Positions 1 to 64,000 of a stretch of 64,000 bases of DNA are shown here, piece after piece. The notes beneath the pieces were generated by a model, which saw only the letters and a program-made list of their open reading frames with translations, was not told where the DNA came from and ran no database searches. Source of the stretch: Bacteroidales bacterium (GTDB lineage: Bacteria; Bacteroidota; Bacteroidia; Bacteroidales; UBA3824); the NCBI GenBank assembly GCA_045628165.1, contig JAZQPB010000156.1, positions 17,367 to 81,366 on the forward strand. The letters run 5' to 3'. The translations under genes and the position numbers were made by a program. The first letter of the stretch is position 1. Each line of letters opens with the position of its first letter.

Positions 1-1685
1 CTGCTGCCGTCTTCCAGGCCCGACACGCTGATATCGCCGTTATAATCAGGGCGCACGGGATTTGGGTACACCAATACATTATTCATATCAGCTGATGGCT
101 CCTGCACATCCGACATATACGACGCGAGTCCGTTTCTGGTGCTGAAAAACACATCGCCTGTCTGCTGAACTATGCGCAGACTATATACAGTGTCGCTCGG
201 CAGAGGCGAGTTGCGCTCGTTGTAGCGGGCTATCTCCTTGTCGGTATCAGCTGATACGAGAAAAACACCGGCCCCCATTGTGGAGATCCATTTCCTGTTG
301 GCGGCATCTATATCTATGGCGGTGATATGCTTGCCGTGCAGCAGATGCTGTGCATACTGGTCGCTTGTGCCCAGAGGCTCCACCACCACAGGATTGGCGA
401 ATACGGCAGTGCCTTCCATTATCCGCTCGGTGCGCGCGCAGGCCACCACTCCCCTGTCGGTGCCCAGCAGAAGCATTCCATGCATATCCATGGCCATGCA
501 CGTAACCATGCCGCCGGCCTTGGCGCCGCCCACCATGGGATAGAACGAGACGTGCCTGTCGTCGGAAAAATCGAGCGGAGTGCCGCCCAGATCCACGGCA
601 AAGATTCCGGCCTGTCCCATATTTACAAGGAACACATAATCGGACATCCGCAGCAATCCAAGAGGCGATGCGCAATTCATTGACTGGAAAGACGATGCGC
701 TATGCCAGTTGCCGTTGTGGTCGAATATGGTTACGGGATTGGCTCTATCGGCCGATAGTATCAGCAGATCGCCCTCGGGAGTGCAGTCCATGTCCACAAT
801 GCGTCCCCTTGCCCGTCCGGCGTAGCGCGCCTTTAGATTGTGGCCTATGTATTCGAAAACAGTTCCATTTTCATCGCCCAGAAATACGTGCTGGGGATTG
901 TAGGGATTATGAAACACGGCTGTAAAATCCACGCCGTCAGGATTTTCTGTATAGAAGATTCCGCTCCTCTGTACCTCTGTATAGTATCGCGAGGCCATGG
1001 ACAGCACACCTGATGCCTGCGCCATCCGATGGGCATAGTCGCACGGCACCGACCTCGGTACGGGACCGCCGTATGCAGTTTTTTCCGCCATCAGCTGATA
1101 CAATCCATCATAGCTCCACTGCCCGGGGTCCTGGAGGTTTGGGCAGCTGATGGCGGCAGAATATGCACCATGAGCGGTAAGGGCAAATATCTCGTCATTA
1201 GCTACAAGACACATTTCCACACCCGGCAGAGGACACGAGGCCAGCACCTCGCCCCTGTACGAATCCACCACCGAGACTCCGAAATCTCCGCTGGCAAGTA
1301 TTAAAGAATTGCTGAAAGTGATATGGCGTATGCAGCTAATGGCGTGAGGTTTGCCGAGCGTGATATCCGGCAATGTGGTTCTGTGTCCGCCGCTGATGAT
1401 ATCGAGCGAGCCGTCCTCGTAGCCCACAGCTATCACCGAGCCTGAAGCCGCTCCAGCTGATACGTAAGAGCTGGACAGGCCGGTGGATTTGGCGAGAGTG
1501 GTAATCTCGCCCGAGCGGTCCACCACAAAAACTCCATTGCGGCATACGCAGAGAGTGCCTCCATCGTATTCGCAATGGGAGATTACATCGCTGAAACTCG
1601 GTCGCGGTGTCCACTGTCCGTATGCGGCCATGGCAGCTAACAGCGTGAAAATGAGAGCTGATATGTATCTAAGACTTCTTGACAC
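1..1685 (-). CDS. Secreted beta-propeller protein with T9SS C-terminal sorting domain (PorZ-like); 3' end runs off the window
   Basis: The minus-strand frame is uninterrupted from 1685 to the window edge. It is missing from the ORF track because no stop lies in the window. GTG at 1685-1683 gives a signal peptide MSRSLRYISALIFTLLAAMAAYGQ. Reg_prop-like blades are present (ITAIDIDAANRKWISTMGAGVF, VYSLRIVQQTGDVFFSTRNGL). The tail NVLVYPNPVRPDYNGDISV matches a type-A T9SS CTD. Confidence 0.6.
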   Translation of the reverse strand, partial: MSRSLRYISALIFTLLAAMAAYGQWTPRPSFSDVISHCEYDGGTLCVCRNGVFVVDRSGEITTLAKSTGLSSSYVSAGAASGSVIAVGYEDGSLDIISGGHRTTLPDITLGKPHAISCIRHITFSNSLILASGDFGVSVVDSYRGEVLASCPLPGVEMCLVANDEIFALTAHGAYSAAISCPNLQDPGQWSYDGLYQLMAEKTAYGGPVPRSVPCDYAHRMAQASGVLSMASRYYTEVQRSGIFYTENPDGVDFTAVFHNPYNPQHVFLGDENGTVFEYIGHNLKARYAGRARGRIVDMDCTPEGDLLILSADRANPVTIFDHNGNWHSASSFQSMNCASPLGLLRMSDYVFLVNMGQAGIFAVDLGGTPLDFSDDRHVSFYPMVGGAKAGGMVTCMAMDMHGMLLLGTDRGVVACARTERIMEGTAVFANPVVVEPLGTSDQYAQHLLHGKHITAIDIDAANRKWISTMGAGVFLVSADTDKEIARYNERNSPLPSDTVYSLRIVQQTGDVFFSTRNGLASYMSDVQEPSADMNNVLVYPNPVRPDYNGDISVSGLEDGS

Positions 1686-2217
1686 GGTCGGGATTGTTGG
1701 CAATAAAGGCGGCCCAGGAGTTGGAGCCCTTGCTGGCCACAGGCATACGTTTCTGATAATGATGGCAAACCGCGGCGGCCAGGGCGTCGGTGGCGTCCAG
1801 CTTGTCGGGAGCCTCGCTTATCTTCAGGGTCATGGCAAGCATGCGCGCCACCTGCTCCTTGGTGGCCGATCCGTTGCCCGCCACGGCGAGCTTTATCTTC
1901 CTTGGCTCATACTCGAAAATCTGAAGTCCGGCGTTTACGGCGGCGGATATCGCCACGCCCTGCGCACGGCCAAGCTTCAGCATGGATTGGGCGTTCTTCT
2001 CGTAGAACTGCGCCTCGATGCTCAGCTCAGTGGGATTGTAGCCCTTGATGAGACCGCTCACGCGCTCGTATATCATCTTCAGCTTCAAGTAAGAATCCTT
2101 AACGTTGTGAATATCAAGAATACCGATAGCGAGGCACTCTATCCTGGAGCCCTCGCTGCTGATAATGCCGTAACCCATAAAATTGGTTCCCGGGTCGATG
2201 CCTAATATTACTGCCAT
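1669..2217 (-). CDS. ruvC: Crossover junction endodeoxyribonuclease RuvC
   Basis: 182-aa ORF with N-terminal ILGIDPGT and RuvC-like length and layout. Its ATG overlaps the stop of the upstream gene (TAATG, plus-strand 2215-2219). Confidence 0.9.
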   Translation of the reverse strand: MAVILGIDPGTNFMGYGIISSEGSRIECLAIGILDIHNVKDSYLKLKMIYERVSGLIKGYNPTELSIEAQFYEKNAQSMLKLGRAQGVAISAAVNAGLQIFEYEPRKIKLAVAGNGSATKEQVARMLAMTLKISEAPDKLDATDALAAAVCHHYQKRMPVASKGSNSWAAFIANNPDRVKKS

Positions 2218-3188
2218 TAGCTGATACGTACTCTAAGTTTCTCGAGGAATGATTTCAGCACATCGGCCTTTCCGGCAGGAGCGGCTTTCTCAAGAAGTGC
2301 GAACGACTCGCTGTAATATTCGTCCACCATCTGCAGAACCTGCTTATCCACACCAAACTCGGCGAAATATTCACGTGCTTTGGCGAGCTTGGCCTCGAAT
2401 GTGTAATCCTTGTTGGCGTAGAATGTGCGCCACTCCTCTACCCTATCAGCTGGCATCAGCTCTATGATCTTGTGATAGAAAACGGTCTTCTTGCACTCAT
2501 TGACATCGCCACCAACGGGCTTGCCGAGAACCTCGGGAGTTGAGTACATATCAAGGAAGTCGTCCTGAATCTGGAACGCTATGCCGAACTTGATGCCGGC
2601 GTCGTAGAGCATCTGTGCCTGATTCTCGCTGGCTCCGCCTATGAGCGCGCCTATCTTGAGGCAGGCGGCAGGGAGCACGGCTGTCTTCAGGGTTATCATC
2701 CTGAGATAGTCCTGAAGGGAGACATCGTTGCTGGTCTCGAAATCCATATCGTACTGCTGACCCTCGCAAACCTCGATGGCGGTTTTCAGGTAGAGATCCA
2801 TGCACTGGAGGCGAACCTTCTCGGGAGCTGTCATCACGTACTTGGTGGCAATGTATGTCATGCCGTCGCCGGAGAGGATGGCCACGTTGTCGCCCCACTT
2901 GGCGTTTACGGTAGGCTTCTTGCGGCGGAGCTTGGAGTTGTCCATGATGTCGTCGTGCAGAAGAGTGAAGTTATGGAAAATCTCCATTCCCACAGATGGT
3001 TTCACGGCCTCAGCTACACTATCGCTGTACATATTGCAGGCCATGAGTCCGAAGACCGGACGCAGCCTCTTGCCACCCAATGAAAGGATATACTTGACAG
3101 GTTCGTAAAAATTCTTTGGCTCGGCAGGATACTGGATGTCAGCTATCTCCTGCTCCACTATGGATAGAAGTTCTTTGAAATCTTTCAT
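2217..3188 (-). CDS. Polyprenyl diphosphate synthase (trans-isoprenyl diphosphate synthase family)
   Basis: Two DDxxD motifs: LLHDDIMDNS and FQIQDDFLD. I moved the start to ATG 3188 (MKDFKELL) because a -7 box lies at 3218-3225, inside the longer track ORF. Confidence 0.85.
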   Translation of the reverse strand: MKDFKELLSIVEQEIADIQYPAEPKNFYEPVKYILSLGGKRLRPVFGLMACNMYSDSVAEAVKPSVGMEIFHNFTLLHDDIMDNSKLRRKKPTVNAKWGDNVAILSGDGMTYIATKYVMTAPEKVRLQCMDLYLKTAIEVCEGQQYDMDFETSNDVSLQDYLRMITLKTAVLPAACLKIGALIGGASENQAQMLYDAGIKFGIAFQIQDDFLDMYSTPEVLGKPVGGDVNECKKTVFYHKIIELMPADRVEEWRTFYANKDYTFEAKLAKAREYFAEFGVDKQVLQMVDEYYSESFALLEKAAPAGKADVLKSFLEKLRVRIS

Positions 3189-3217
3189 GATGTTTTGGTA
3201 TGTTTGTTTATCTGACG

Positions 3218-3225
3218 CAAAATTA
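3218..3225 (-). promoter_or_regulatory. Bacteroides-type -7 promoter box (TAATTTTG on minus strand)
   Basis: Matches the TAnnTTTG consensus, 30 nt upstream of ATG 3188. Confidence 0.45.
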
Positions 3226-3270
3226 ATAAAAAAAGCCAAGCCCACATATTACAATCCCCAAAAAAATCCT

Positions 3271-3278
3271 TATATTTG
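3271..3278 (+). promoter_or_regulatory. Bacteroides-type -7 promoter box (TATATTTG)
   Basis: Matches TAnnTTTG, about 60 nt upstream of ATG 3337. Confidence 0.5.
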
Positions 3279-3285
3279 CAACAGC

Positions 3286-3315
3286 GAAACAGCGGTTTCG
3301 GAAACAGCGGTTTCG
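3286..3315 (+). repeat. Two tandem 15-nt hairpin units (GAAACAGCGGTTTCG x2) in the 5' leader of the ATPase gene
   Basis: Exact tandem duplication. Each unit is a GAAAC/GTTTC stem with an AGCG loop. It lies between the -7 box and the start codon. Confidence 0.7.
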
Positions 3316-3336
3316 GAAGTAAAAAAAATTGATACT

Positions 3337-4656
3337 ATGAAATTTTTCGACAGGAAAGAAGAGATAGCCAAACTCAGGGAGATTCAGCAAATGTCGCTGA
3401 GCAACGCCCAGTTTACAATAATAACAGGCCGACGCCGCATCGGCAAGACGAGCATGGTGCTGAAGGCGTTTGAGAACCAGCCACTTGTATATTTTTTTGT
3501 AAGCAGGAAGGCTGAGGCCGCACTGTGCGCGGATTTTCAGCAGGAACTGGAAAACAAGCTCAACATCGTAACCATGGGCAAGGCCACAAGCTTTGCCACC
3601 ATATTCGAGCAGCTGATGATAATATCAGAGAAACAGAACCTGACCTTGTTCATAGATGAGTTTCAAGAGTTTATCAACGTAAACAAATCCATCTACAGCG
3701 ACATGCAGAGAATCTGGGACCTCCACAAAAACAACAGCAGGCTAAACCTGATAGTATGCGGCTCGGTATATTCGCTGATGGGCAAGATTTTCAAGAACGA
3801 GAAAGAGCCTCTGTTTGGAAGAGAGACCGCGCAGATAAACCTGAAGCCATTCAGGCCATCCACCCTAAAGGAGATAATGCAGGAATACAATTCCGGATAC
3901 AGCAACGAGGACTTGCTGGCTCTATACACATTTACCGGAGGAGTGGCCAAATACGTAGAGATACTTGTAAACAGCAACGCCCTTACGCTGAACAAAATCC
4001 TAAACAAGATCTGCGAGAAGGATTCCATTTTCATCAGCGACGGCAAATCCACTCTGATAGAAGAATTCGGGCGAGACTATGGAATATATTTCTCGATATT
4101 ATCAGCCATTGCCAACGGACACAACTCAAGAAGCAAAATTGAGGAAATCATCGGAAAGGAAGTTAGCGGATATCTTACAAAATTAGATTCGGAATACGGC
4201 CTCATCAGCAAGCATCAGCCAATGTTCGAGAAAAGCGCAGGCACAAACCTCCGCTACAAGCTCGACGACAACTTCTTCATCTTCTGGTTTAGGTTCATAT
4301 ACAAGTACAATTACATGCTCGAGATTGGCGCATACGAGAAACTGCTTCAGATAATACAGCGCGACTACAATGTATTCAGCGGATTGGCTCTGGAGAAATA
4401 TTTCAAGGAGGTGATGATGGAATCCAGGAAATACACCAGAATAGGCAACTGGTGGAACCGCAAGGGCGATGTGGAGATAGACATAATATCCGCCGACGAA
4501 CTGGAAAACACAGCTGAATTCTACGAGGTGAAGCGCAAGAAGGAAAACTTCTCACCAAAACTTCTTGAAGAAAGGAAAGACGCTTTCCTAAGCGCCACAC
4601 ATCAATTCAAGAACTACAAAATAGAATGTAAGGGATTGTCGATAGAGGATATGTAA
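3337..4656 (+). CDS. AAA+ ATPase of the archaeal-ATPase/DUF234 type
   Basis: Walker A ITGRRRIGKTS and Walker B LFIDEFQ, with a long C-terminal region typical of DUF234 proteins. Start set at ATG 3337 (MKFFDRKEEI), downstream of the promoter box. Confidence 0.75.
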   Translation: MKFFDRKEEIAKLREIQQMSLSNAQFTIITGRRRIGKTSMVLKAFENQPLVYFFVSRKAEAALCADFQQELENKLNIVTMGKATSFATIFEQLMIISEKQNLTLFIDEFQEFINVNKSIYSDMQRIWDLHKNNSRLNLIVCGSVYSLMGKIFKNEKEPLFGRETAQINLKPFRPSTLKEIMQEYNSGYSNEDLLALYTFTGGVAKYVEILVNSNALTLNKILNKICEKDSIFISDGKSTLIEEFGRDYGIYFSILSAIANGHNSRSKIEEIIGKEVSGYLTKLDSEYGLISKHQPMFEKSAGTNLRYKLDDNFFIFWFRFIYKYNYMLEIGAYEKLLQIIQRDYNVFSGLALEKYFKEVMMESRKYTRIGNWWNRKGDVEIDIISADELENTAEFYEVKRKKENFSPKLLEERKDAFLSATHQFKNYKIECKGLSIEDM

Positions 4657-4663
4657 AAAAAAG

Positions 4664-4700
4664 TCCCGGAAGATAACATTATCTCCCGGGGCTTTCTATA
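4664..4700. terminator. Imperfect hairpin between convergent genes (possible bidirectional terminator)
   Basis: CCCGGAAGATAA/TTATCTCCCGGG arms followed by a T-rich stretch. Confidence 0.4.
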
Positions 4701-4739
4701 TTGTAAACGTAAATATCAGAAAACTAAAAAAACAACTTC

Positions 4740-7082
4740 CTACTTCTCCTCTATTGCCTCATCTTTCTTGTCCTTATTGAACTTCAGCTTGAATGTGAGC
4801 AGAAGCGATGGCAGGAAGAGCAGGTTGGTGAACATGGCCACAAACAATGTTATGGATATCAGCAGGCCGAGGGCTATTGTGCCGCCGAACTGTGATCCGC
4901 AGAACATGAGGAAGCCGCAGAGAAGTATCAGCGCCGAATAGATGATGGAAACGCCGGTCTCGCGGAGCGACTCTATCACCGACTTGCGTACATCGCCGAG
5001 GTTGTGGTCGATGGCCTGGCGGAACTTGGTGAAGAGGTGGATGGCGTTGTCCACAGAGATTCCGAACGCGATATTGAACACAAGGATTGTGGAGCTCTTG
5101 AGTCGGATATCAAAGAATCCCATTATGGCGGCGGTTACTATCAGCGGAATAAAGTTTGGAATCACTGATATGATAACCATTCTCCAGTTGCTGAAGAGAG
5201 CCATCATACAGAGCGATATCAGGATGATGGCCAAAACCAAAGACTGAACGAGATTGTCGATGAGCTTGAGCGAGCCCTTGGCAAAGATTACCGATGTTCC
5301 TGTAATATCCACAACATTGCCCTTATCAGCTGGGAAATACTTATCGATGATGGCGGCTATGCTGTCGGTAACATCAATCATGCGGATGGTGCCCACATCA
5401 GCTATTCGCATCTGAATGCGCGCGCGTGAGAATGTGGTATCCACCATGGCGGTCATCACATTGTTGGCTCCCTTCTGCGAGCGGTTGTTGTTCAGGTATT
5501 CCTGGAAGAAGAGAAGCTCGGCCTCGCTGTTTGGCAGACAGAAGAAATCGTTGTTGCCGTTGTAATAAGCGCGGTTGATGAGCTTGATGGCATCGGCGAA
5601 AGATGTGCCGTGGCTCAGACAGTTGAAGCTGGCCAGCGAATCCTCAATGGCCTCTATGTTGCGGATGGTCTTCATCTTCAGCAGGCCTTTCTTCTTCTTG
5701 GTATCGATGGAAATCTCCATAGGGAGAATACCCTTGAGCTCCTTCTCGAAATACTTGAGGTCGCTGTAGATAACATTGTGCTCCGGGAGGTCGTCCACCT
5801 GGAAACTCTCGTTGCGCATGAGTGTGAGACCGTATATTGCCACTGCCACTACCACGATGGTGGCGGTGAAGATAAGCTTGCGCTTGCGCTCCACAAGGTA
5901 CACGAACTTTTCAACGATGTTGGTCACAAACTTGGTATCGAGGTGCTTGAGCTCCTTCTCGGTAGGTGGAGCCACGTAGCTGAATATCGACGGCACCATA
6001 AGCACAGAGAGCACAAACATTGTGATAATGCCGAGAGTGGCCACCAGGCCAAACTCCATGAGCATTGCGTTGCCGGTGATGAGGAATGTGGCGAATCCGG
6101 CGGCGGTGGTAAGGTTGGTTAGGAATGTGGCCTTGCCTACCTTGGTGATTACCTCGAAGAGTGATTTCTCCTTGTCGCGGGTCTCGCGGTATACCACGTG
6201 ATATTTGTTGAGCAGATATATTGTATTAGGAATGCCTATCACTATGAGAAGCGGAGGCAGCATTCCCGACATCATGGTGAGCTCGTATCCGAACAGTGCC
6301 ATGAAGGCCATGGTCCAGATAACGCCCACAAATACTATAAGCACGCTCCAGAGCGTGGTCTTGATGCTGCGGAAGAATATCATGAAAATGATGGACACGA
6401 TAATGAGCGAGAGCACGGCAAAGAATATCAGCTCGTCCTTAATCATCTTCATGGAGCTGCTGCGGATGTATGGCAATCCGCTGCAATGAACCTTCACATT
6501 ATGGCGCTCGCCGTATCCGTATACAGCGCCCTTGATGCCGGCCACCAGCTGATCGAGGTCCTTGCACACGATGGTCTGCGGATCGCAGGTAATGGCCATC
6601 ACATAGCAGTTGTTGGGTGTGTAGAGCAGCTGATCGTAGAATTTGAAATCCTTTACGAGCTGAAACATAGAATCGAGCTCGGCCTGTGTGGTGGGCGCGG
6701 GATCAAAAATCTTGTTTATCACAAACTTCCTTTCCACGGTATCCTTTACCAGCGATACTGCATTGGTGTACGAGAGAATGCTCTTGACACCGATGATGCT
6801 CTTCATGCTGTCCTGAAGGCGCACGAGGTCGTTGTATTTATCGAGCGAGATGAAATTCTCGTCCTCGAAAGCCACGGCTATCATGGAAGCATCCTCACCG
6901 AAAGTTTTCTTGAAATCCATGAAACGCAGAAACGCGCTGTCGGACTCGTTGAGCAGCTGCGCGGCTGAATACTTCATGCGCAGGTTCTTCATATTGAAGC
7001 CCATGAACACGGTGATAATACCTATTGCTATAAGTATCATCCGCTTGTTCTTCAGTATGAAATTAGCTATACTATTCCACAT
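4740..7082 (-). CDS. MMPL/RND-superfamily exporter (COG1033-like putative lipid exporter)
   Basis: 780 aa with two hydrophobic multi-helix bundles (about aa 200-370 and 620-760), each preceded by a large soluble loop. This is the RND/MMPL architecture. Confidence 0.75.
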   Translation of the reverse strand: MWNSIANFILKNKRMILIAIGIITVFMGFNMKNLRMKYSAAQLLNESDSAFLRFMDFKKTFGEDASMIAVAFEDENFISLDKYNDLVRLQDSMKSIIGVKSILSYTNAVSLVKDTVERKFVINKIFDPAPTTQAELDSMFQLVKDFKFYDQLLYTPNNCYVMAITCDPQTIVCKDLDQLVAGIKGAVYGYGERHNVKVHCSGLPYIRSSSMKMIKDELIFFAVLSLIIVSIIFMIFFRSIKTTLWSVLIVFVGVIWTMAFMALFGYELTMMSGMLPPLLIVIGIPNTIYLLNKYHVVYRETRDKEKSLFEVITKVGKATFLTNLTTAAGFATFLITGNAMLMEFGLVATLGIITMFVLSVLMVPSIFSYVAPPTEKELKHLDTKFVTNIVEKFVYLVERKRKLIFTATIVVVAVAIYGLTLMRNESFQVDDLPEHNVIYSDLKYFEKELKGILPMEISIDTKKKKGLLKMKTIRNIEAIEDSLASFNCLSHGTSFADAIKLINRAYYNGNNDFFCLPNSEAELLFFQEYLNNNRSQKGANNVMTAMVDTTFSRARIQMRIADVGTIRMIDVTDSIAAIIDKYFPADKGNVVDITGTSVIFAKGSLKLIDNLVQSLVLAIILISLCMMALFSNWRMVIISVIPNFIPLIVTAAIMGFFDIRLKSSTILVFNIAFGISVDNAIHLFTKFRQAIDHNLGDVRKSVIESLRETGVSIIYSALILLCGFLMFCGSQFGGTIALGLLISITLFVAMFTNLLFLPSLLLTFKLKFNKDKKDEAIEEK

Positions 7083-7110
7083 AATCAGATATAAATATTT
7101 AAAAGTGTTA

Positions 7111-8013: not shown

Positions 8014-8061
8014 AATGCTTTGCTTAAAAACTTTGTAGCCAATATATAATAAAACTGGATA

Positions 8062-8069
8062 CAAAGTTA
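8062..8069 (-). promoter_or_regulatory. -7 promoter box (TAACTTTG on minus strand)
   Basis: TAnnTTTG match 49 nt upstream of ATG 8013. Confidence 0.45.
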
Positions 8070-8097
8070 ACAATTAAATTTCAAATAGTAAAATATG

Positions 8098-8676
8098 TTA
8101 TCTTTTGTAATTCAGCAAAAAATCGGCCATCTTGTTCAAAGCCATCGCCCGGTGCGAGATAGCGTTTTTCTGCTCCGAAGTCATCTCGGCCATAGTGATA
8201 TCGAAACCATCCGGCAGAAAAACCGGATCGTACCCGAAACCACCCTGTCCGCGCCTGTCCAGTGTGATTACGCCGTTCACATATCCCTCAAAATGGATAG
8301 GACTGCCGTCCATCACCAATACCATCTCGGTATGGAACCTCGCCCGGCGGTCGGTTACGCCTTCCAGATTCTTGAGCAGGAGATTCATATTGTCGTCGGA
8401 ATCTCTCTGAGGTCCTGCGTACCTTGCCGAATATACACCGGGAGCATTGTTGAGCGCTGTAACCTCAAGTCCTGTGTCATCGGAGAAACACGGCTGATGA
8501 TACTTGTTCCAAAGATACATAGCCTTCTCCTCGGCGTTCTCGTAGATGGTCTCGTGAGTTTCGGGAATTTCGTCACTACATCCTATCTCATTGAGCGACA
8601 CCACCTTAAAAGTCTTTATTATCTGCTGAGCTTCAGCAAGTTTCTTTGCATTATTAGTTGCAAAAATCATGTCCAT
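8098..8676 (-). CDS. rdgB: Non-canonical purine NTP pyrophosphatase (RdgB/HAM1 family)
   Basis: IFATNNAKKLAE at the N-terminus and FGYDPVF plus SHRA near the C-terminus; about 190 aa. Confidence 0.85.
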   Translation of the reverse strand: MDMIFATNNAKKLAEAQQIIKTFKVVSLNEIGCSDEIPETHETIYENAEEKAMYLWNKYHQPCFSDDTGLEVTALNNAPGVYSARYAGPQRDSDDNMNLLLKNLEGVTDRRARFHTEMVLVMDGSPIHFEGYVNGVITLDRRGQGGFGYDPVFLPDGFDITMAEMTSEQKNAISHRAMALNKMADFLLNYKR

Positions 8677-8743
8677 TTTTATATATGTATTTTTTTGTTT
8701 ACTTCAATCACTTCATCACTTCAACACTTCATCACTTCAACAC

Positions 8744-10681: not shown

Positions 10682-10750
10682 AAATCCCTATTTAAAAGTA
10701 ATTGAATAATCTAAAAAGTTTTTGATATGCGAAATAAACAAAAAAAATCC

Positions 10751-55627: not shown

Positions 55628-57514
55628 CTAATTTTCTGATTCAGAAATACTTGAATCAATTTCTTGGCCATTAGCTGAAACCGACAAATCGTGAAGAATT
55701 TCCTCGTCGGGATGAAAATGTTGGTAAATTTTCACCGCCTTGCCCAAATCGACAACTTTTCGCAGTTCAAGAATCGGAAGTTCCGAAATTTTGCTCACCG
55801 AGCCGAAAGTTGTGAGAAGTTTTCCGATGGTCTTGTCGCCGATGCCGGGAATATCCTCGAGCACCGAATGAATCATTCCCTTCGATCTCTTGTTTCGGTG
55901 GAAGGTGATTCCGAAACGGTGGGCCTCGTCGCGGAGATGCTGAATAACTTTCAGAGTCGGCGAGGCTCTGTCGAGATAGAGCGGAATAGGATCTTCGGGA
56001 TAGAAAATTTCCTCGAGTCGCTTGGCCAAACCGACAACAGCAATTTTGGTATCGAGCCCGAGAGCCTGGAGAGTTTCGTAAGCGCATCTCAGCTGACCCT
56101 TGCCACCATCTATCACTATCAGCTGAGGCAATTCCTTACCTTCTTCCGAGAGGCGTTTGTATCTGCGGTAAACAACCTCGCGCATGGTGGCAAAGTCGTC
56201 GGCGCCCACCACGGTTTTCACATTGAACAAACGGTAATCTTTCTTGTAAGGTTTGCCGTTGCGGAAAACCACGCAGCTGGAAACGGGATTTGTTCCCTGA
56301 ATATTTGAGTTGTCGAAACACTCGATATGGCGCGGTTCCACACTCAGCTGAAGGTCGTCCTTCATGCGTTTCATCAGATTGTTGGTGGATGCATCGGGAT
56401 CCACAAGCGAGCGCTGTCTCTGCTGCTGGTCCATAAAGAGACGGCAGTTTCTGAGCGACCAATCCAAGAGCTGTTTCTTGTCGCCGTACTTGGGAACGGT
56501 GATTTTGAAATCGGCAAATTCGAAATCTATCTCCATCGGCAGAATAAGCTCCTCGGCATCGTCGCCGATATTTAGCTCGGAGAAATGAATGTCGGTGATA
56601 GTGGTTGTGAGAATGTCGACAGGGTCCTCCTCTACCCTATCCTTGATTTCGCGGGTAAAGGAACGGATAATTACCGAATTGGAAACCTTCATGAAATTCA
56701 CATAATAGAAATCGTCGCGCTCGTCCTTCAGGATCGAATAAACCTCCACCGTATTGAAAACCTTCACAGAGATTACATTCTTGGCGTGGTAATTATCGAG
56801 CACGTCGTATTTTTCCTTTATCAGCTGGGCCTTCTCAAACTCCAGATTCTCGGCAAGCTGCATCATCTGAGCGCGCATATTGTTGAGCACGTCAGTAGTG
56901 CGCCCGCTGAGAATCTTGCGGATGTTTTCGATATAGGCATTGTACTCCACTTTCGAAACCTTTCCGATGCATGGCGCGCAGCAGTTCTTGATATGGTAAT
57001 CGAGGCACACATCATGCTTGCCGGCCTGAACATTGCTCTCTACGAAAGAAGTTCTGCACGTTCTCAGCTGATATAAGCGTCGGAACATCTCGAGAATTTC
57101 CTTCATCTGGAAAACCGAAGTGTAGGGTCCGAAATATTGCGCGCCGTCCTTGAGCTTGGTCCTCGTGAAAAACACACGCGGGAAATCCTCCTTGCTGATA
57201 CAAATCCACGGATAAGTTTTATCGTCCTTGAGCAGGATATTATATCTCGGCTGAAACTTCTTTATGAGTTTGTTTTCCAGCAGAAGCGCATCAGTTTCGG
57301 TATCCACGCAAATATGGAGCAGGTCCTTGATATGCTTGACGAGGATCGCAGTCTTGCCTACTTGATTCTTTTCGCGGAAATAACTCGACACGCGGTTCCG
57401 CAAATTCTTGGCCTTGCCCACATAAATCACAGTGCCGTTCTCGTCGAGAAAATTATAAACCCCCGGCGAAAGCGGCAATGTCTTCACTTTGTATTCAAGA
57501 GATTTTTCATCCAT
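55628..57514 (-). CDS. uvrC: Excinuclease ABC subunit C
   Basis: GIY-YIG N-terminus (GVYNFLDENGTVIYVGKAKNLRNRVSSY), a UVR domain, an endonuclease V-like domain and a C-terminal HhH (IPGIGDKT). Confidence 0.9.
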   Translation of the reverse strand: MDEKSLEYKVKTLPLSPGVYNFLDENGTVIYVGKAKNLRNRVSSYFREKNQVGKTAILVKHIKDLLHICVDTETDALLLENKLIKKFQPRYNILLKDDKTYPWICISKEDFPRVFFTRTKLKDGAQYFGPYTSVFQMKEILEMFRRLYQLRTCRTSFVESNVQAGKHDVCLDYHIKNCCAPCIGKVSKVEYNAYIENIRKILSGRTTDVLNNMRAQMMQLAENLEFEKAQLIKEKYDVLDNYHAKNVISVKVFNTVEVYSILKDERDDFYYVNFMKVSNSVIIRSFTREIKDRVEEDPVDILTTTITDIHFSELNIGDDAEELILPMEIDFEFADFKITVPKYGDKKQLLDWSLRNCRLFMDQQQRQRSLVDPDASTNNLMKRMKDDLQLSVEPRHIECFDNSNIQGTNPVSSCVVFRNGKPYKKDYRLFNVKTVVGADDFATMREVVYRRYKRLSEEGKELPQLIVIDGGKGQLRCAYETLQALGLDTKIAVVGLAKRLEEIFYPEDPIPLYLDRASPTLKVIQHLRDEAHRFGITFHRNKRSKGMIHSVLEDIPGIGDKTIGKLLTTFGSVSKISELPILELRKVVDLGKAVKIYQHFHPDEEILHDLSVSANGQEIDSSISESEN

Positions 57515-57551
57515 ACTCCTACCCTATTTCAGTTTCACACGAAACATTTTT

Positions 57552-59405
57552 TCAACGTCCAAGATGAATCAACAATGTATTGATATCAGCTGGACTGACA
57601 CCAGGAATCCTGGAAGCCTGGCCAATATTTGCAGGTCTGATTCTCGAAAGTTTTTGTCTGCATTCAGTTGAGAGCGATTTCAAAGATTCGAAATCCATAC
57701 TTTCAGGAATCTTTACATAATCGAGACGAGAGAGCTTTTCAGCTGTCTGCTCCTCCCTATCGATGTAGCCCTGGTATTTTAGTTTTATTTCAGCTGATTC
57801 AATTTCATGATGGCTGAACTTTTTCAGGAACGGAAAAACATCCTTGAGTTCCTCAAGAGCAACCTCGGTTCTAAGCACAACCGCGCTCAATTTATTTCCC
57901 TGAGTCATCGGCTTGCTGCCTTTCGATTCAAGATAACCGTTGATTTTTTCACATGAAACAGAAGTATTCTTACAGAATTCAAGAATCCGCTCCACGTTAT
58001 CAGCCTTAGACTTATACGTCTCGTAGCGTTCCTCGTCGGCCAAACCGAGATCGAAACCTCGCTTAGTTAAACGCTCGTCGGCATTATCCTGACGGAGAAG
58101 AATTCTATATTCGGAGCGAGAGGTAAACATACGGTAAGGCTCATCTACGCCTTTTGTAACGAGGTCGTCGATAAGCACACCGATATAGGCATCTTTTCTG
58201 GAAAGTACAAGCTCTTCCCTACCCTGGAAAGACAGCGCGGCATTGATTCCGGCCACCAAACCCTGACAGGCAGCCTCCTCATATCCGGTGGTTCCATTCA
58301 CCTGACCCGCGAAATAGCATCCGCTGACAACCTTGGATTCCAAAGTATGAAGCAGCTGAGTAGGATCAAAATAGTCATATTCTATCGCATATCCCGGTCT
58401 GAAAATTTTGCATTTTTCCAATCCCGGAATCTTTCGGATAGCGGAATATTGAACCTCGAAAGGAAGCGAAGAAGAGAAACCATTGAGATAATATTCGCAA
58501 GTACCAGTCCCTTCAGGCTCAAGAAAAACAGGATGCGAGCTCTTATCGGCGAAAGTCACAATCTTGGTTTCCACCGAAGGACAATATCTCGGACCTGTAG
58601 ATTTGATGGTTCCATTGAAAAGCGGACTGCGGTCAAATCCCTTTTTCAGCTCCTCATGAACCTCAGGATTGGTATATGAAATATAACATTCCCTTTGCGG
58701 AAGCTTTGTAATTTTATGAGCCATGTACGAGAAAGAGTCTTCAGCTGAATCACCAGCCTGTGGCGTCATAGCCGAAAAATCTATTGTACGGCCGTCGATT
58801 CTCGCAGGCGTTCCGGTTTTCATTCTGCCTGTTTTCACTCCAGCTGATAGCAAAGTCTCTGTAAGTCCATGCGCAGGAATCTCGCCTATTCTGCCACCTT
58901 GGTACTGACTTGTGCCGACATGCATAAGTCCGTTGAGGAAAGTTCCGGCAGTAATCACAACTTTCTTGCACTTAAACTGGACGCCGAAAACAGTTTCGAT
59001 ACCCACTACCCTACCCTCTTCTACGCAGATTTTGCTTACAGTATCTTGCCAGAAATAGAGATTCGGAATCAGCTCCAACTGATCGCGCCAGAAAATCGAG
59101 AACTTCACACGGTCGCACTGAGCGCGCGGCGACCACATAGCAGGACCCTTAGAACGGTTAAGCATACGGAACTGAATAGAGCTCATATCCGTAACAATTC
59201 CAGTAAGACCGCCAAGCGCATCTATCTCACGGACAATCTGTCCTTTCGCAATTCCGCCGATCGCAGGATTGCAGGACATCTGTCCGAACTTTGCCATATC
59301 CATTGTAATGAGCAAAGTACGCACGCCAAGCTTAGCCGAAGCGGCCGCAGCCTCACATCCGGCATGCCCCGCTCCTATCACAATTACATCATACTCTTCT
59401 ATCAT
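57552..59405 (-). CDS. mnmG: tRNA uridine 5-carboxymethylaminomethyl modification enzyme MnmG (GidA)
   Basis: FAD motif [16 protein letters not shown]; 617 aa with GidA-like sequence throughout. Confidence 0.9.
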
Positions 59406-59833
59406 TTCGCAAAATCCTTATAGAAAATATCAATATAAAAGTTCTCCATTTTATGAATCTCAGCCTCCTGCTCGTCGGTCAAATCATCATAACCTACAAG
59501 ATGCATCACGCCGTGAATCATAACTCTCAGGAGTTCGTTCTCGAAAGAAACGCCGAAAGAATTCGCATTATCCCGCAATCTATCGGAGCTGATGAACATA
59601 TCACCGCTTATCACATCATCCTTCACATAATCGAAAGTTATGATATCGGTATAGTAGTCATGATTCAAATATTGCTTGTTCACATTAAGCAAATATTCAT
59701 CTGAGCAGAAAATATAAGTCACGTTTCCCGTGAAACAGCCCTCGTTTTTAATAGCATAATCTATCCATTTTTCGAGTTTCGACTGCTCTGGAAGCTGGAA
59801 TTCTACATCCTCAAAATTGAAACTAAAAGCCAT
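59402..59833 (-). CDS. ybeY: rRNA maturation RNase YbeY
   Basis: The zinc motif [11 protein letters not shown]; 143 aa; 4-nt overlap with mnmG. Confidence 0.85.
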
Positions 59834-59836
59834 ATT

Positions 59837-60232
59837 TTAAAGTTTAAAAGTCATTTTCAACAAAGTTCCACCTTCCAAAAACTCCAATCCATCCGACAAA
59901 CTCTTGATGAGATATATACCTCTACCGCTAAACTTCAGGATATTTTCAGGCAAAGTTGGGTCAGGAAGAGTCGAAAAATCAAATCCCATACCCTCGTCCT
60001 TAACATCAATTTCGAGAGTATTTCCCTTCAAAACCGCGTCAAGGAAAACGAATTTAGTTGAATCGAGACGGTTGCCGTGCTTTACAGCATTAACCACAGC
60101 CTCGGTTGTCGCTATAAGAATATTGCCATAAATCTCCTCGGAGATGTTGTTCTCCGAACTGATAGAGTCGATAAAATTCTCCGCAAGGACAATATTATCG
60201 ATACTTGTCTGGAAAGATAAAGACTTTTTCAT
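59837..60232 (-). CDS. RsbW/SpoIIAB-type HATPase_c serine kinase (SiaB-like / anti-sigma-factor-like)
   Basis: N-box EAVVNAVKHGN and G-box DEGMGFD, about 130 aa. Start set at ATG 60232 rather than the track's GTG at 60241. Confidence 0.7.
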   Translation of the reverse strand: MKKSLSFQTSIDNIVLAENFIDSISSENNISEEIYGNILIATTEAVVNAVKHGNRLDSTKFVFLDAVLKGNTLEIDVKDEGMGFDFSTLPDPTLPENILKFSGRGIYLIKSLSDGLEFLEGGTLLKMTFKL

Positions 60233-60240
60233 GTGAAACA

Positions 60241-63200
60241 CTAATCTAAGTTTTGTATGTAATTGTTGTATTTTTCTTGGTAATAAAGATTGAGATTCAG
60301 TGGCGAGGAATGTATAAATTCCTTGACGCCGAAATCCTTCAACTTCAGGTTTAGATTCTGAGAATTGTTGTTCTGAAAATCAAAACCTTGTTTACTTTCT
60401 CGTTTGTCGTCATAATCCTGTTCTTTCTCGGCTTTTTCCAAGTCCAAAAGTTTGTTGAAAACGAGATTCTGACGGTCAACAAGGCGCTTTGTAATGTTCT
60501 TGTTTACAATATCACGCTTGTTTTCTTCCATCATCTGCTGAATTTGATTCATCAGCTGCTGTTCCTGCTGAGAAACTCCCTTGCCATTTTGGATTTCCTG
60601 AAGCTGTTGCATCATCATTTCCTGCTGACGCAAAGCCTCGGCCAACTGCTGAGAAGACATCTTGTCGCCATTCTGCAACTGCTGGAGCATCTTTTGAAGT
60701 TGTTGTTTAAGCATCTGCTGCTGAGACTTCATCTGCTGAGTGCGTTGCTGTCGCCGCTGATTTTCCTTCTTGTTGCGGGTTTCAACGGATTCTTCGGAGT
60801 CCTCACCCTCCTCCCCTTCCTGCTGCTGCTTCTGCATATCGTCAGAAATTTGATTGAAAATAAGACTCAAATCATTGAAATAAGTCAGCAAGGTTTGCAT
60901 ATAAGCTGAAACATTGGCACGAGATCCGCCGTCAACAGCCTTGGTTACGAGTCCAAATTGGGTATGAATATGGTCAATCTTTGTATAAACCTCATGACCG
61001 AACTCCGGAGAACGCTTTGCCAAAGCATATATAGAATCCTGAACCAACGCAAAATCTTTCGAAATCGCATTTTGATCACGAAGCAAATCTGTTTGCATAT
61101 AAACAGTTTGAGTATTCTTGTTCAAGTTATCAATCAACTTCTCCTGATTGAATGAAATAGCAACCAAATTATCAAGAATCTGACGAATGTCATTCAAGTT
61201 TTCCTGACGTTTCTTTTGCTGATTTTTCTTTTTCAGACCATTCATTTCCTTAGACAAATCCTCCATTTCCTCGGAAGTTTGCTCCATTTGCTGAGAAATA
61301 TTTTGACGGCGTTGCTTCTCATTGGCGTTATTTGAGCCATTTTTATTGGAATCTGAACCCGATTTTTGGTCGTTTTTATTGAAATCTGAACCCGATTTTT
61401 GGTCATTTTTGTCGGAATTGTCTCCTGATTTTTGGTTATTTTTATCAGAAGAGTCGCCAGATTTTTGGTTCTTATCGCTTGAATTTTGCATATTCTGACC
61501 AGCTGAATCGCTTTTGTCAGAATCCGAATCGCCAGAATTTGCATCATTTTGCGCATCAGAATCATTAGAATCGGAGCCTTTTTCAGTCTGTTGTTCGGCT
61601 ATTTTTTTGTTTTCAGCTGATATATTTCCGTCTTTATCCTCGTTAGAATTGGACGAATTTTGGTCTGCATTAGCTCTGTCAGGATTAGACAAATCTGAAT
61701 TCTCTGGCTTCAAACCAAGATCCTTTTCCAGATTTTCAACTTCATTTTTTTGGAAATCCAGTTCCTTCGTAAGCTGTTCGAACTGCTTTTCCAAGTCCTG
61801 AAGATCCAATTTATTGTTGCCAAGTTGCTCATTCTGCTTCAGCAAATTGCTATATTCTTTATCAAGTTTATTGAAATCCTTACTGAATTCCTGCATTTTT
61901 TCAGACAAAGATTCACTTTTTGAACCCTTTTGCGACTTCATTTCATTGGCCAAATCTTTGTATTTTTCAGACATTTTCTTCAAATCATCGCTCAGATTAT
62001 GAAGCTTGTTGTCGATATTATACATTTTCATCAGCTCGCTGTTACGGTCGAGCTGTTCCGAAATCTGATTGAAATCAAATCTCAGCTCCTGAATATTGTC
62101 ACGAAGATTCTTTTCAGAAAGAACCTCCTTCATCTCTTCGATTCTATCGAGCAATTCCTTGATGTCTTCTGTCATCAAACCTTCCCACATTTCCTGCAAT
62201 TGCTTTTGTTTTTCGAGCAATTCCTGCGAGAGATTCTGATTCAGCTGATTCTCGAAAGCGTTTTTCGACATATTATCCTGAGAAAGATCATTCATCAAGT
62301 CCGACAATTTCTCCTGCTTTTGCATCAAATTATCAATTTTCAACTGTTTTTCCCAGTCTGAAATCTGATCATTTGATGTAACATTTTTCTGAAAATCATT
62401 CAAATCTGAATTCAATTCACGCAAAAGACGTTGAGCTTGGTCAATTTTATCAAAAATTGAAGAATTCAAATTTTCAACACGCTCCTGTTTTTCCTCGTTT
62501 GTAATTGTAGTGTAGACCGAAAGTGGCGTTTTAGCTGACTTGAAACCTGAGATTGGATCATTATCGCGAACCTCAAAATAATAAGAAACAGACTTAGAAA
62601 GATTGCTGAAATCAAAATAATAATAAAAATCCTGCGATACGCCTTTACGTAATTCTATATCAGCTGAATGAATATCCTTGGGATTATTGGAATCGAAATA
62701 TTTAAAACACAAACTATGGAAACCATAGTCATCAGAAATGTGCCCGGAAAAGAAAACGCCATTAGCTGAACTTGAATCAACCGCCGAAACTGCCACAATC
62801 TGAGGAGAATAGTCAGGCAAAAGATTCACGTGAAACAAATTTGAATTCATCAAAAATCCGCCCTCTCCCACTGCTGAGTAATAATAATCAAACGGTTTCA
62901 AGGCTCTCGTAACAACATTCAAGTTTTCAACAGCTTGTTTTACTTCCTGAGAAGTGCTGTCGATGTAAAAATTGAAAATTGTTGCATGTGAAACATTGAA
63001 AGCCCAAGTAAGCGTAGAGCCGAATGGTGCTGTAAAGTCGCTGAAGTTTTCAGTTGAAATCACATCCAATCCAGTATACTCAGGAGGACAGATTACCAAA
63101 TTGGAATAAGTTACATTAGGTCTATGAACCACGGAAATTTGATGTTTCTCAGATACAAAGTCAAGGTAATTGAAAGAGAATTCGATATCGGAAGTTACAT

Positions 63201-63951
63201 TCCGTAAAGTATAAGAAAAACAATCTGCGGAATCCGAATTCATACGAACGCTAAAGTTATCAGCTGATATGAAAATATCCTGCAAAATTGACGGTCCGGA
63301 AGATTTTAGACGGAGAGTAAAGTCATCACCATAAGCACAATAGAGGCTGTCGTTCAAAATTTCGATTGAATATGGATTTTCGGGAACATAATATGTGGAA
63401 TAATCCCAAAATCTATGAGATCCCTGAGAGAAATTTCGGTTGAAAATAGAACCAAAGGCAATCAGCAAAGCCAAAATTCCCAAAGAAACAAACAAAAACT
63501 TTGATGTTTTTTTGAAATTGATGGCATTTACAAAGTTCAAAGGACTTATAAGCGAAATCTTCTGATTGATAGCGGCGACTAAAATATCCGATTGATTGTT
63601 GGAATTAAGCTGGAGAATATTTATCAGCAAATCCTGAGACTCCGGGAAATGGTTCGAGATAATTTCCGCAGCTTCTTCCTGTGTGAGGAATGGAATAATT
63701 TTCAGATACTTGAAAAGCGGTATCAAAACAAAAAATATAAATATGGAAGCTAATATAAAAACCAAGAAATAGAAGACCAAAGTCTTGGTAAATGGTGACA
63801 TGAAAGCTACAGATTCCACCATCGAAACAGTGAAAAACGACACTATTGCAAACAATAATGACAAAACAACTCCAATAACAATTCTATTGAGATAGAACTT
63901 GTTAATAAAATCGTTTAATTTACCTTCTATGACACTAAAATTTGACTGCAT
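60241..63951 (-). CDS. Large membrane-anchored coiled-coil / low-complexity protein (DUF4175-like)
   Basis: Two or three N-terminal TM helices, a central beta-rich region, then about 600 aa of Q/E/K/N/S/D-rich coiled-coil and low-complexity sequence. Confidence 0.65.
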   Translation of the reverse strand: MQSNFSVIEGKLNDFINKFYLNRIVIGVVLSLLFAIVSFFTVSMVESVAFMSPFTKTLVFYFLVFILASIFIFFVLIPLFKYLKIIPFLTQEEAAEIISNHFPESQDLLINILQLNSNNQSDILVAAINQKISLISPLNFVNAINFKKTSKFLFVSLGILALLIAFGSIFNRNFSQGSHRFWDYSTYYVPENPYSIEILNDSLYCAYGDDFTLRLKSSGPSILQDIFISADNFSVRMNSDSADCFSYTLRNVTSDIEFSFNYLDFVSEKHQISVVHRPNVTYSNLVICPPEYTGLDVISTENFSDFTAPFGSTLTWAFNVSHATIFNFYIDSTSQEVKQAVENLNVVTRALKPFDYYYSAVGEGGFLMNSNLFHVNLLPDYSPQIVAVSAVDSSSANGVFFSGHISDDYGFHSLCFKYFDSNNPKDIHSADIELRKGVSQDFYYYFDFSNLSKSVSYYFEVRDNDPISGFKSAKTPLSVYTTITNEEKQERVENLNSSIFDKIDQAQRLLRELNSDLNDFQKNVTSNDQISDWEKQLKIDNLMQKQEKLSDLMNDLSQDNMSKNAFENQLNQNLSQELLEKQKQLQEMWEGLMTEDIKELLDRIEEMKEVLSEKNLRDNIQELRFDFNQISEQLDRNSELMKMYNIDNKLHNLSDDLKKMSEKYKDLANEMKSQKGSKSESLSEKMQEFSKDFNKLDKEYSNLLKQNEQLGNNKLDLQDLEKQFEQLTKELDFQKNEVENLEKDLGLKPENSDLSNPDRANADQNSSNSNEDKDGNISAENKKIAEQQTEKGSDSNDSDAQNDANSGDSDSDKSDSAGQNMQNSSDKNQKSGDSSDKNNQKSGDNSDKNDQKSGSDFNKNDQKSGSDSNKNGSNNANEKQRRQNISQQMEQTSEEMEDLSKEMNGLKKKNQQKKRQENLNDIRQILDNLVAISFNQEKLIDNLNKNTQTVYMQTDLLRDQNAISKDFALVQDSIYALAKRSPEFGHEVYTKIDHIHTQFGLVTKAVDGGSRANVSAYMQTLLTYFNDLSLIFNQISDDMQKQQQEGEEGEDSEESVETRNKKENQRRQQRTQQMKSQQQMLKQQLQKMLQQLQNGDKMSSQQLAEALRQQEMMMQQLQEIQNGKGVSQQEQQLMNQIQQMMEENKRDIVNKNITKRLVDRQNLVFNKLLDLEKAEKEQDYDDKRESKQGFDFQNNNSQNLNLKLKDFGVKEFIHSSPLNLNLYYQEKYNNYIQNLD
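61348..61479. repeat. Four 33-bp in-frame tandem repeats inside the 1236-aa gene
   Basis: The units are GGAATCTGAACCCGATTTTTGGTCGTTTTTATT, then GAAATCTGAACCCGATTTTTGGTCATTTTTGTC, then two more diverged copies. They encode (K)SGSD(F/S)NKNDQ-type 11-aa repeats. Confidence 0.8.
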
Positions 63952-64000
63952 TATTTACTTGGTAATTTTATTAGCCATTTTTGCGGATCCAAAGTCTCTG
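63951..64000 (-). CDS. 3' end of an upstream ORF (partial), stop overlapping the next start (TAATG)
   Basis: Open minus-strand frame ...ETLDPQKWLIKLPSK* ending at 63951-63953. Only 16 codons are visible. Confidence 0.3.
   Translation of the reverse strand, partial: ETLDPQKWLIKLPSK

Follow-up and report, generated by a model that had tools for sequence, protein, structure and literature searches.

The locus and its relatives

The window analysed here, a 64-kb stretch of DNA from an uncultured gut Bacteroidales lineage represented by metagenome-assembled genomes (MAGs), contains genes for SprA, UvrC, MnmG, a 1236-aa protein and many others (Table 1). Scattered through these genes and their spacers is a short palindromic word, CAGCTG, frequently extended to the octamer TCAGCTGA. 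It is strongly over-represented at the DNA level, its copies arose by point mutation, and it is confined to the species of the window and one sister species. An earlier note on this DNA, made from the letters alone, had drawn attention to the word and had identified the gene at 55628–57514 correctly as UvrC.

For comparison we used syntenic loci of 22 kb each from relatives picked through a graded series of UvrC homologues. Close relatives came from ENA, Logan and NCBI, none from JGI, and the scan of genome collections gave at least two related loci. L001 (JAZUEG010000270) is 89–96% identical to the window at the nucleotide level, and its locus does not cover UvrC. L003, L004 and L012 represent the sister species (UvrC 96% identical in amino acids; ~82% nucleotide identity to the window). 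Further away are L005 and L013 (UvrC 90%; ~76% nucleotide identity), L002 (~80% nucleotide identity in SprA, with UvrC outside its locus) and L006 to L011 (UvrC 84–67% identical in amino acids). An exact-protein look-up of RuvC and of the 1236-aa protein returned no record, and Rfam gave zero matches within the window.

Abundance of the word

CAGCTG occurs 80 times in the window, 75 of these sites lying inside genes. The heptamers CAGCTGA and TCAGCTG (56 and 45 copies) mark 72 distinct sites, in line with the more than 60 counted by eye in the earlier note, TCAGCTGA is present 29 times, and the 11-mer GCCAT[CT]AGCTG or its complement 19 times. Eighteen positions had been listed for this last form; they were right to within 1–2 nt, and only a copy at 12790 had been overlooked. 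The word had also been described as running through the whole stretch, which holds for genes and spacers elsewhere but not between 14156 and 27820, where CAGCTG is missing.

All null models are largely exceeded. An order-2 Markov model predicts ~22 CAGCTG, and dinucleotide shuffles yield 1.31 ± 1.13 copies of TCAGCTGA, with a maximum of 6. When synonymous codons are shuffled inside each gene, the coding sequences are expected to hold 27.7 ± 4.4 CAGCTG (74 observed), 2.4 ± 1.3 TCAGCTGA (25 observed), 14.9 of the 7-mers (91 observed) and 1.1 of the 11-mer GCCATYAGCTG (15 observed). For the core words these differences correspond to z values of 10–20, and of 12–27 against shuffles of codon order, the 11-mer scoring higher still. 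The excess is ~3-fold for the hexamer and ~20-fold for the octamer, and an excess of 10- to 20-fold holds under codon-aware nulls. With 29 copies against 1.3, TCAGCTGA lies beyond the at least 15-fold excess of a palindromic octamer that defines words of the type of HIP1, the highly iterated palindrome 1 of cyanobacteria.

The copies occupy two main reading frames on both gene strands. The CAG-CTG frame, read as Gln-Leu, contains 34 sites (17.8 expected from codon frequencies), and the xCA-GCT-Gxx frame, read as Ser/Pro/Thr/Ala-Ala-Asp/Glu/Gly, contains 33 where only 4.2 are expected, even though GCT and TCA are minor codons. Seven sites fall in the third frame, in which a 3' A creates an in-frame TGA stop. 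The peptides reported earlier, AANGENF and PANGANS in SprA, VSANGQEI in UvrC and SSANGVF in the 1236-aa protein, are all present, and both the codon-aware shuffles and the frame counts bear out the claim that the excess concerns the DNA word and not codons or peptides. A purely compositional origin, through codon usage, amino-acid content or dinucleotide bias, could draw on the slight commonness of Gln-Leu (77 against 63 expected) and on CAG and CTG being preferred codons. It is nevertheless barely credible, and we consider it ruled out by the shuffles, by the excess being strongest on rare codons, and by the lack of the word both in the orthologous proteins of relatives and in a long segment of the same window (see below).

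Outside that segment, the hexamer is about equally dense in coding sequences and spacers (1.5 and 1.8 per kb), whereas the extended forms are 3–6 times denser in spacers. This is expected if the long form is a DNA-level optimum held back by coding constraint. Copies in spacers often form short tandem arrays or pairs (27820–27849, 33733–33790, 12877–12919 and 32529–32570); multi-copy word patterns amount to only ~1 per 64 kb. The inverted pair at 15158–15206 is not a canonical terminator, since its predicted hairpin is followed by an A-run and lacks a U-run. No terminators made of inverted pairs, as known for DNA uptake sequences (DUS), were found in the window, the other spacer pairs being direct repeats. 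The orientations of GCCATYAGCTG are split 13:6, a sample (n = 19) too small to show a clear bias.

Origin and distribution of the copies

Orthologous positions in the relatives align with the window without gaps and differ by point substitutions. Where the window has TCAGCTGA, relatives have TCGGCTGA, TCGGCCGA or TCTGCCGA; where it has CAGCTG, they have CAACTG, CAATTG, CAGCTT or CAGTTG. At 62758 the word was built by successive point substitutions, since intermediates survive in the sister species and the outgroups (Table 1). Among the window sites missing in an outgroup, 15 involve only synonymous differences and 19 change a residue (for instance EL, SL, RL or ML to QL). About half of the sites thus involve amino-acid changes, which points to a force able to prevail over protein constraint, as it does over codon preference.

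These gap-free differences exclude an origin through insertion. The earlier note had named, as one of the outcomes that would undo its proposal, a longer dispersed repeat family with conserved flanks, either a miniature inverted-repeat transposable element (MITE) or a repetitive extragenic palindrome (REP); a peptide-encoding insertion element with the word as its core was weighed here as well. The tandem spacer arrays at 27820–27849 and 33733–33790 do vary like cassettes between strains, and a 21-nt consensus, (A)GTTTTCGCCATYAGCTGAAA, joins several copies (family D4). Nonetheless, information falls to zero 3–4 nt beyond the core, 75 of the 80 sites are genic and in several frames, and every orthologous comparison is indel-free, with stepwise intermediates at 62758. 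Repeat families containing the word are just 21–28 nt long and 75–90% identical, and the usual traits of REPs and MITEs (at least 20–30 nt, conserved flanks, mostly intergenic location, presence/absence polymorphism) are lacking. A dispersed repeat is therefore ruled out for the bulk of the copies and is, as a general explanation, very improbable.

The word belongs to a narrow lineage. CAGCTG reaches 1.25 per kb in the window, 0.67 in L001 and 1.23, 1.51 and 0.66 in L003, L004 and L012, respectively. It is at expectation in L005 (5 against 6.6), L013 (8 against 6.4) and L002 (6 against 5.0), and at or below expectation in L006 to L011. Besides the MAG of JAZUEG010000270, the word-bearing genomes comprise one with an 89.5-kb contig that encodes an identical KdtA and the bin of ERZ27280648 k141_153269; GCA_045597465.1 and GCA_017417315.1 are word-free. 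The copies have thus arisen by point mutation in the species of the window and its sister species only. The suggestion that such a word had not been described for Bacteroidales agrees with the literature searched; the word is, however, no general feature of the order, and the family-wide sharing typical of DUS and of uptake signal sequences (USS) is absent, the word being gone by the next relatives (UvrC 90% identical and below).

When the window, the sister species and L005 are aligned three ways, 2 sites turn up in all of them, 10 in the two word-bearing species but not in L005, another 10 in the window alone and 8 in the sister species alone. Sites private to each species imply that gain and loss are ongoing in both lineages, a process that must have started before their divergence. 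Their flanks have become distinct dialects: the window species uses TATCAGCTGATA and the asymmetric 12-mer (C)GCCATYAGCTGA, and the sister species CAGCTGA(A), the string GCCATYAGCT being absent from L003 and L004 and present twice in L012.

Table 1. Positions of word copies and other features in the window
Position (strand)	Feature	Content	In relatives
1–15865	Word-rich resident DNA, left part	28 CAGCTG sites in unrelated genes and spacers; genes with sites encode PorZ-like protein, polyprenyl synthase, MMPL transporter, SprB-repeat protein, OmpA-family protein and others	
1087–1154	Inverted pair within PorZ-like gene	CGCCATCAGCTG / CAGCTGATGGCG	
8691–8747 and 37104–37153 (minus)	Tandem 8–9-nt repeats	(TGAAGTGNT)n, directly after GGATTAA (has TAA stop)	
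12877–12919 (plus)	Direct pair, 31 nt apart, A-run between	GCCATCAGCTG ... GCCATTAGCTGA; copy 1 directly after OmpA-family stop, copy 2 overlaps ATG of PNPOx-like gene (MPLAEKK)	
15158–15206	Inverted pair near left edge of word-free segment	GCCATTAGCTGA / TCAGCTAATGGC; predicted hairpin with 12-bp stem, 26-nt loop, −21 kcal/mol, z −4.9	
15866–27819	Word-free segment of 12 kb, putatively imported	0 CAGCTG, 1 AGCT against ~50–90 expected; most of BcrAD/BadFG activase gene, KdtA, two PDDEXK_2 genes, AAA_5 + DUF2201 pair	Counterparts at L013 5300–16400 and L012 5678–11233
22244–24068	Low-GC stretch (~35%)	Two small open reading frames of unknown function; bordered by the PDDEXK_2 (Rpn-type) genes	98.7–99.5% identical in L012 and L013; surroundings 76–90%
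25046–25148	Three 33-nt tandem repeats; also imperfect 48-nt inverted repeat	Intergenic, beside PDDEXK_2 gene	
27820–64000	Word-rich resident DNA, right part	52 CAGCTG sites; SprA 13, UvrC 6, MnmG 6, 1236-aa protein 6	
27820–27849	Spacer between convergent genes	Two tandem copies of 15-nt unit TATCAGCTGAAATGA	L001: GCCATCAGCTAAAAT GCCATTAGCTGATAT
32529–32570 (plus)	Direct pair, 30 nt apart	GCCATCAGCTGAAA; probably upstream of true start of DUF4271 gene	L001: second copy is T variant
32803–37097 (minus)	Three adjacent genes without Pfam/NCBIfam family	Share 40–150-nt segments of 60–80% identity	
33733–33790	Three TCAGCTGA copies, 25-nt spacing	Inside tandem 25-nt unit TATCAGCTGATATACAAATAAATGT; last copy supplies stop codon of minus-strand gene 33783–35249	L001: two variant copies
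35265–37097	610-aa gene	No family assignment	
38393–38403 (plus)	T variant GCCATTAGCTG in SprA	Gene strand GCAGCTAATGGC, encodes AANG	L002: unrelated sequence at aligned position, gap-free
55667–55678 (plus)	T variant GCCATTAGCTGA in UvrC	Encodes SANG	Sister species: GGGCGTTAGCTGA
56089–56126	Two TCAGCTGA, 30 nt apart, in UvrC	Both in Gln-Leu frame	Outgroups: same dipeptide via CAACTG, CAATTG or CAGCTT
57531–62995	Cluster of parS-like sites inside mnmG, ybeY and 1236-aa gene	6 sites (TGTTTCACGTGAAACA, at most 3 mismatches) in 5.5 kb; 0.25 expected per whole window	L003 4201–6266; orthologous places in L006–L010
61331–61429	Three 33-nt tandem repeats	Inside 1236-aa gene	
62758–62769 (plus)	T variant GCCATTAGCTGA in 1236-aa gene	Encodes SANG	Outgroups GCCGTTTGCAGC or GGCGTTTGCCGC, sister species GCCGTTAGCTGC; path GCCGTTTGCAGC to GCCGTTAGCTGC to GCCATTAGCTGA

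A rigid core with permissive flanks

Information around CAGCTG falls from 0.5 bit for A at position +1, through 0.2 bit for T or A at +2, to 0.1 bit for A at +3, beyond which it is nil. Among the extended forms, the most frequent are a 12-nt palindrome (TATCAGCTGATA), TTTCAGCTGA and the asymmetric (C)GCCAT[C/T]AGCTGA. Outside the word-free segment, octamers that deviate by one base at the outer positions are themselves enriched 6- to 8-fold (CCAGCTGA 22 and GCAGCTGA 16 copies, ~2.7 expected for each), and those that deviate inside mostly stay close to expectation, the exceptions being TTAGCTGA (9 against 0.95) and TCTGCTGA (10 against 2.6). As outer changes are tolerated, it is the hexamer CAGCTG, a PvuII-type site, that forms the hard core, and not the 8-mer or 12-mer taken as the unit in the earlier note; the flanks are soft.

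The half-site TATCAG/CTGATA is present 132 times in the whole window (~42–49 expected) and GATATC 58 times (~25–32 expected). Both are enriched 2- to 6-fold and without strand bias (60 against 61 for TATCAG inside genes), also in L001, L002, L005, L013 and the word-free segment. They represent an older and broader signature, of which TATCAGCTGATA is the exact palindromic doubling. GATATC is almost absent from L006 to L010.

Dyad symmetry extends over 12–16 nt, GATATCAGCTGATATC with at most 3 mismatches being found 13 times where 0.29 are expected, as might be seen if the copies were binding sites of an abundant dimeric chromosome-organising protein (nucleoid-associated or a ParB/Noc-like paralogue), with selection then working on how dense the sites are overall, an idea already put forward for HIP1 periodicity. 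The half-site enrichment in relatives without the full palindrome would fit a half-site preference older than the word, spacer copies are paired 15–31 nt apart, and TTTCAGCTGAAA differs from the parS core TTTCACGTGAAA just at the central dinucleotide. We nevertheless deem such an organiser improbable. Noc and parS sites number in the tens per genome, and no known specific-site system comes near ~1 site per kb inside genes; with respect to the 16-bp TGTTNCACGTGAAACA-like sites of ParB and Noc, the copies are at least 100-fold too dense, the central dinucleotide differs and the flanks do not match. No parS-like flanks were found in the dialect of the sister species. Once the word-free segment is removed, random placement accounts for the largest gap and for how many close pairs there are (7 gaps below 50 nt against 5.9 expected), so that both regular and clustered spacing can be rejected, and no candidate protein emerged.

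The outer C of the core is a hot spot of change. At CAGCTG sites, the window and L001 differ by a single base in six cases, of which five are C/T flips at this C, all in spacer copies. This speaks for the earlier proposal that the T variant stems from deamination of a methylated C. Three observations speak against it: GCCATTAGCTG is present 10 times and its mirror product GCCATCAGCTA only once; T is the older state at the coding sites 55667 and 62758, where it is shared with the sister species and outgroups (at 55667, the sister species has GGGCGTTAGCTGA); and the deamination products of either C are not depleted. Deamination is thus only partly supported as the origin of the T variant; the C/T flips would predict 5-methylcytosine at the outer C, and a PvuII-type enzyme would predict N4-methylcytosine at the inner C. 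A very-short-patch repair signature was rejected, CAGTTG/CAACTG not being depleted (29 against 25–28 expected) and TAGCTG being enriched.

A mutable and possibly modified C would also suit a neutral explanation, in which the word is a by-product of repair or mutation bias caused by a CAGCTG (or AGCT) methyltransferase. Following the methyl-directed mismatch-repair ratchet of Elhai, mutations that complete a methylatable site would be preferentially retained, and the word would accumulate without a function of its own. Soft outer positions around a classic type II site, as in the word, are the signature that Elhai uses for this ratchet (PMC4390886), and random spacing, gain and loss in both sister lineages and site conservation not clearly above background would all be compatible with it. 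We nonetheless regard it as rather unlikely. Acting on the hexamer, it leaves unexplained the long species-specific flanks (GCCAT..., TAT...) and the 3- to 6-fold higher density in spacers; the C-deamination products are not depleted; about half of the sites change amino acids, which implies a force beyond protein constraint; and the nicking enzyme that it calls for is hypothetical even in cyanobacteria (PMC5861425).

A segment without the word

The 12-kb segment at 15866–27819 retains other signatures of the lineage, namely avoidance of GATC and GTAC and excess of TATCAG and GATATC. Its BcrAD–KdtA part is 91.6% identical to L013, the flanks only 76–81%, and L013 is likewise AGCT-poor across this part. 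By contrast, the resident allele of a gene of this segment in the sister species has normal AGCT and 4 CAGCTG, and L001 has AGCT in the part that it covers. Because of this jump in identity and the resident allele in the sister species, the segment is best seen as DNA that recombination brought in from another species, a donor that avoids AGCT; the left breakpoint falls within the BcrAD gene. An assembly chimera is less probable. The segment serves as an internal negative control: the word marks long-resident DNA, and foreign DNA is without it.

Some of the relatives have purged AGCT: L007 and L008, with UvrC 79–82% identical, contain 1 and 0 AGCT in 22 kb (~45–50 expected), and L010 is partly depleted. 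Such near-total purging is as expected from an AluI-type restriction system. Within the segment, the stretch at 22244–24068 appears, from its near-identity in L012 and L013, to be a very recently exchanged cassette.

Other sequence signatures

Several palindromes are strongly avoided over the whole window: GATC (88 against 203 in synonymous shuffles), GTAC (90 against 184), AGTACT (1 against 17), TGATCA (3 against 19), CGATCG (1 against 13), CATATG (0 against 7) and CTTAAG (2 against 14). Words containing TTCGA are also depleted. Avoidance of this kind is the usual footprint of restriction systems, opposite to the behaviour of CAGCTG.

A k-mer screen of the relatives brought up a second word, TTCACGTGAA, which was rejected: its copies are orthologous parS-like sites in the region of mnmG and the 1236-aa gene and are not genome-wide. 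The cluster of parS-like sites in the window suggests an origin-proximal region; the copies of the window have mostly lost the central CG (CACATG, CATGTG), and relatives keep CACGTG. The two (TGAAGTGNT)n repeats trail two genes related to type IX secretion and gliding, those of the SprB-repeat protein and of SprA, and on the SprA side they fill the spacer up to the ATG of the next gene. The three related genes next to SprA appear to be tandem paralogues.

Comparison with known words

In fold excess, density, origin by substitution and the contrast between core and flank one-offs, the word has, as far as sequence can tell, the properties of a highly iterated palindrome, and HIP1, DUS and USS were the right systems to compare it with. 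Like HIP1 (GCGATCGC) and the alternate cyanobacterial palindromes, TCAGCTGA is an octameric palindrome whose centre is a 6-nt site of the type II methylase kind. It shows a more than 15-fold excess at ~1 copy per kb in genes and spacers, has spread by nucleotide substitution and deviates mainly at its outer bases, as the one-offs of HIP1 do around the methylase site CGATCG (PMC4390886). Lineage-specific replacement words also exist in the HIP1 system. The word is nevertheless an analogue and no member of HIP1, as both its sequence and its phylum are different, and it has an additional asymmetric 12-mer form. HIP1 spans almost a whole phylum, the word only two sister species; for HIP1, methylation by cognate methylases, site conservation beyond background and periodicity at the 10–90 kb scale are documented. 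In Synechococcus, natural transformation rises more than 100-fold with methylated HIP1 (bioRxiv 10.1101/2024.09.10.611283), the abundance of HIP1 goes together with DNA-uptake genes (bioRxiv 10.64898/2026.06.24.733823), and comparably high abundance has not been seen outside cyanobacteria (PMC5861425). Our literature searches for a CAGCTG word, or for hyper-abundant palindromes outside cyanobacteria, found nothing relevant, nor any report of such a word in Bacteroidota.

The word also resembles the DUS of Neisseriaceae (GCCGTCTGAA and its dialects) and the USS of Pasteurellaceae. All are words of 9–12 nt, at ~1 per kb, in both orientations and in coding and non-coding DNA, that accumulate by point mutation at tolerant codons, have a longer consensus that is denser in spacers, form dialects between related species and are missing from horizontally acquired islands. 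They differ in that the core studied here is a perfect palindrome, accompanied in the window species by the asymmetric 12-mer GCCATYAGCTGA, and in that it shows neither sharing at the family level nor inverted-pair terminators. In Helicobacter pylori, the restriction–modification target CCGG, the one notable over-represented site of this kind in systematic surveys, is over-represented ~1.4- to 1.5-fold (Rusinov et al. 2015, PMC4687349). Here too, a lineage that recombines naturally has a type II palindrome in excess where avoidance might have been expected, and no explanation has been accepted; the excess in the window is larger (~3-fold for the hexamer, ~20-fold for the octamer) and comes with extended flanks, and the restriction–modification system of CCGG is known. 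Chi, the FtsK-orienting polar sequences (KOPS) and the architecture-imparting sequences (AIMS) are also short over-represented words, species-specific marks for DNA-processing machines, but they are non-palindromic, skewed with respect to the replication strand and several-fold less dense, in contrast with the palindromic core and the even strand distribution of TATCAG in the window.

A self-recognition word?

We read CAGCTG in this lineage as a self-recognition word of the HIP1/DUS type, kept by a DNA-level drive and probably tied to a CAGCTG-specific methyltransferase, a reading to which we give a probability of roughly 40%. The data show the DNA-level excess, the origin by substitution, the restriction to one lineage, the flank dialects, the ongoing turnover and the absence from imported DNA; from these we infer the methylation, the responsible protein and the bias in uptake or recombination, for which the HIP1 findings on transformation and uptake genes are a precedent. 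In principle, the lineage would have acquired a sequence-specific DNA protein that recognises the word, the likeliest candidate being a methyltransferase for CAGCTG, either orphan or part of a restriction–modification system. Conspecific DNA bearing the word, possibly in marked form, would then be favoured at uptake or recombination, and alleles with the word would displace those without it, a molecular drive that would come to rest at ~1 site per kb, where mutational decay offsets the gains.

Several points weigh against this reading. We know of no uptake specificity in any Bacteroidota species, and our literature search on uptake sequences in Bacteroidetes found no relevant report. Known uptake sequences are non-palindromic and family-wide, and this word is already missing from a relative whose UvrC is 90% identical. 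Neither the window nor the loci of the relatives gave a Pfam or NCBIfam match to genes for competence, restriction, Vsr or a methyltransferase. The spacing of the sites is Poisson-like, with a coefficient of variation of 0.98 after removal of the word-free segment. Sites are conserved in the sister species in 12 of 23 cases, which is not significantly more than the 0.378 of all hexamers, and in L001 in 8 of 15, a figure given without a computed background. The only foreign import seen came in without a single copy of the word. Finally, the word-bearing DNA examined amounts to ~85 kb from a single chromosomal neighbourhood.

How uptake sequences and HIP1 arise, and whether they are selected signals, products of selfish drive or by-products of repair, has been hard to settle, in part since the examples known so far are old and have become fixed in whole families or a phylum. 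The word described here is young, since about half of its sites are common to the sister species, gain and loss are ongoing, the flanks have diverged and the closest word-free genome is syntenic, with 76% nucleotide identity. Because of this youth, comparing the gene content of a few MAGs could name the responsible protein, and polarised substitutions could separate drive from bias. The word would, if we may be more speculative, be a recently born HIP/DUS-type word of Bacteroidales, tied to only two sister species and the first outside cyanobacteria and Proteobacteria, a proposal that we hold as tentative and with somewhat less confidence than the self-recognition reading as such. In practice, the word may serve in this lineage as a sharp marker for binning and for the detection of imported DNA and chimeric assemblies. 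The purging of AGCT in members of the clade and the 12-kb site-free segment passed between species tie the word to restriction barriers and to gene flow among gut Bacteroidales. If a new methyltransferase and biased uptake or recombination do lie behind it, the clade would be a natural time series for the origin of such a word.

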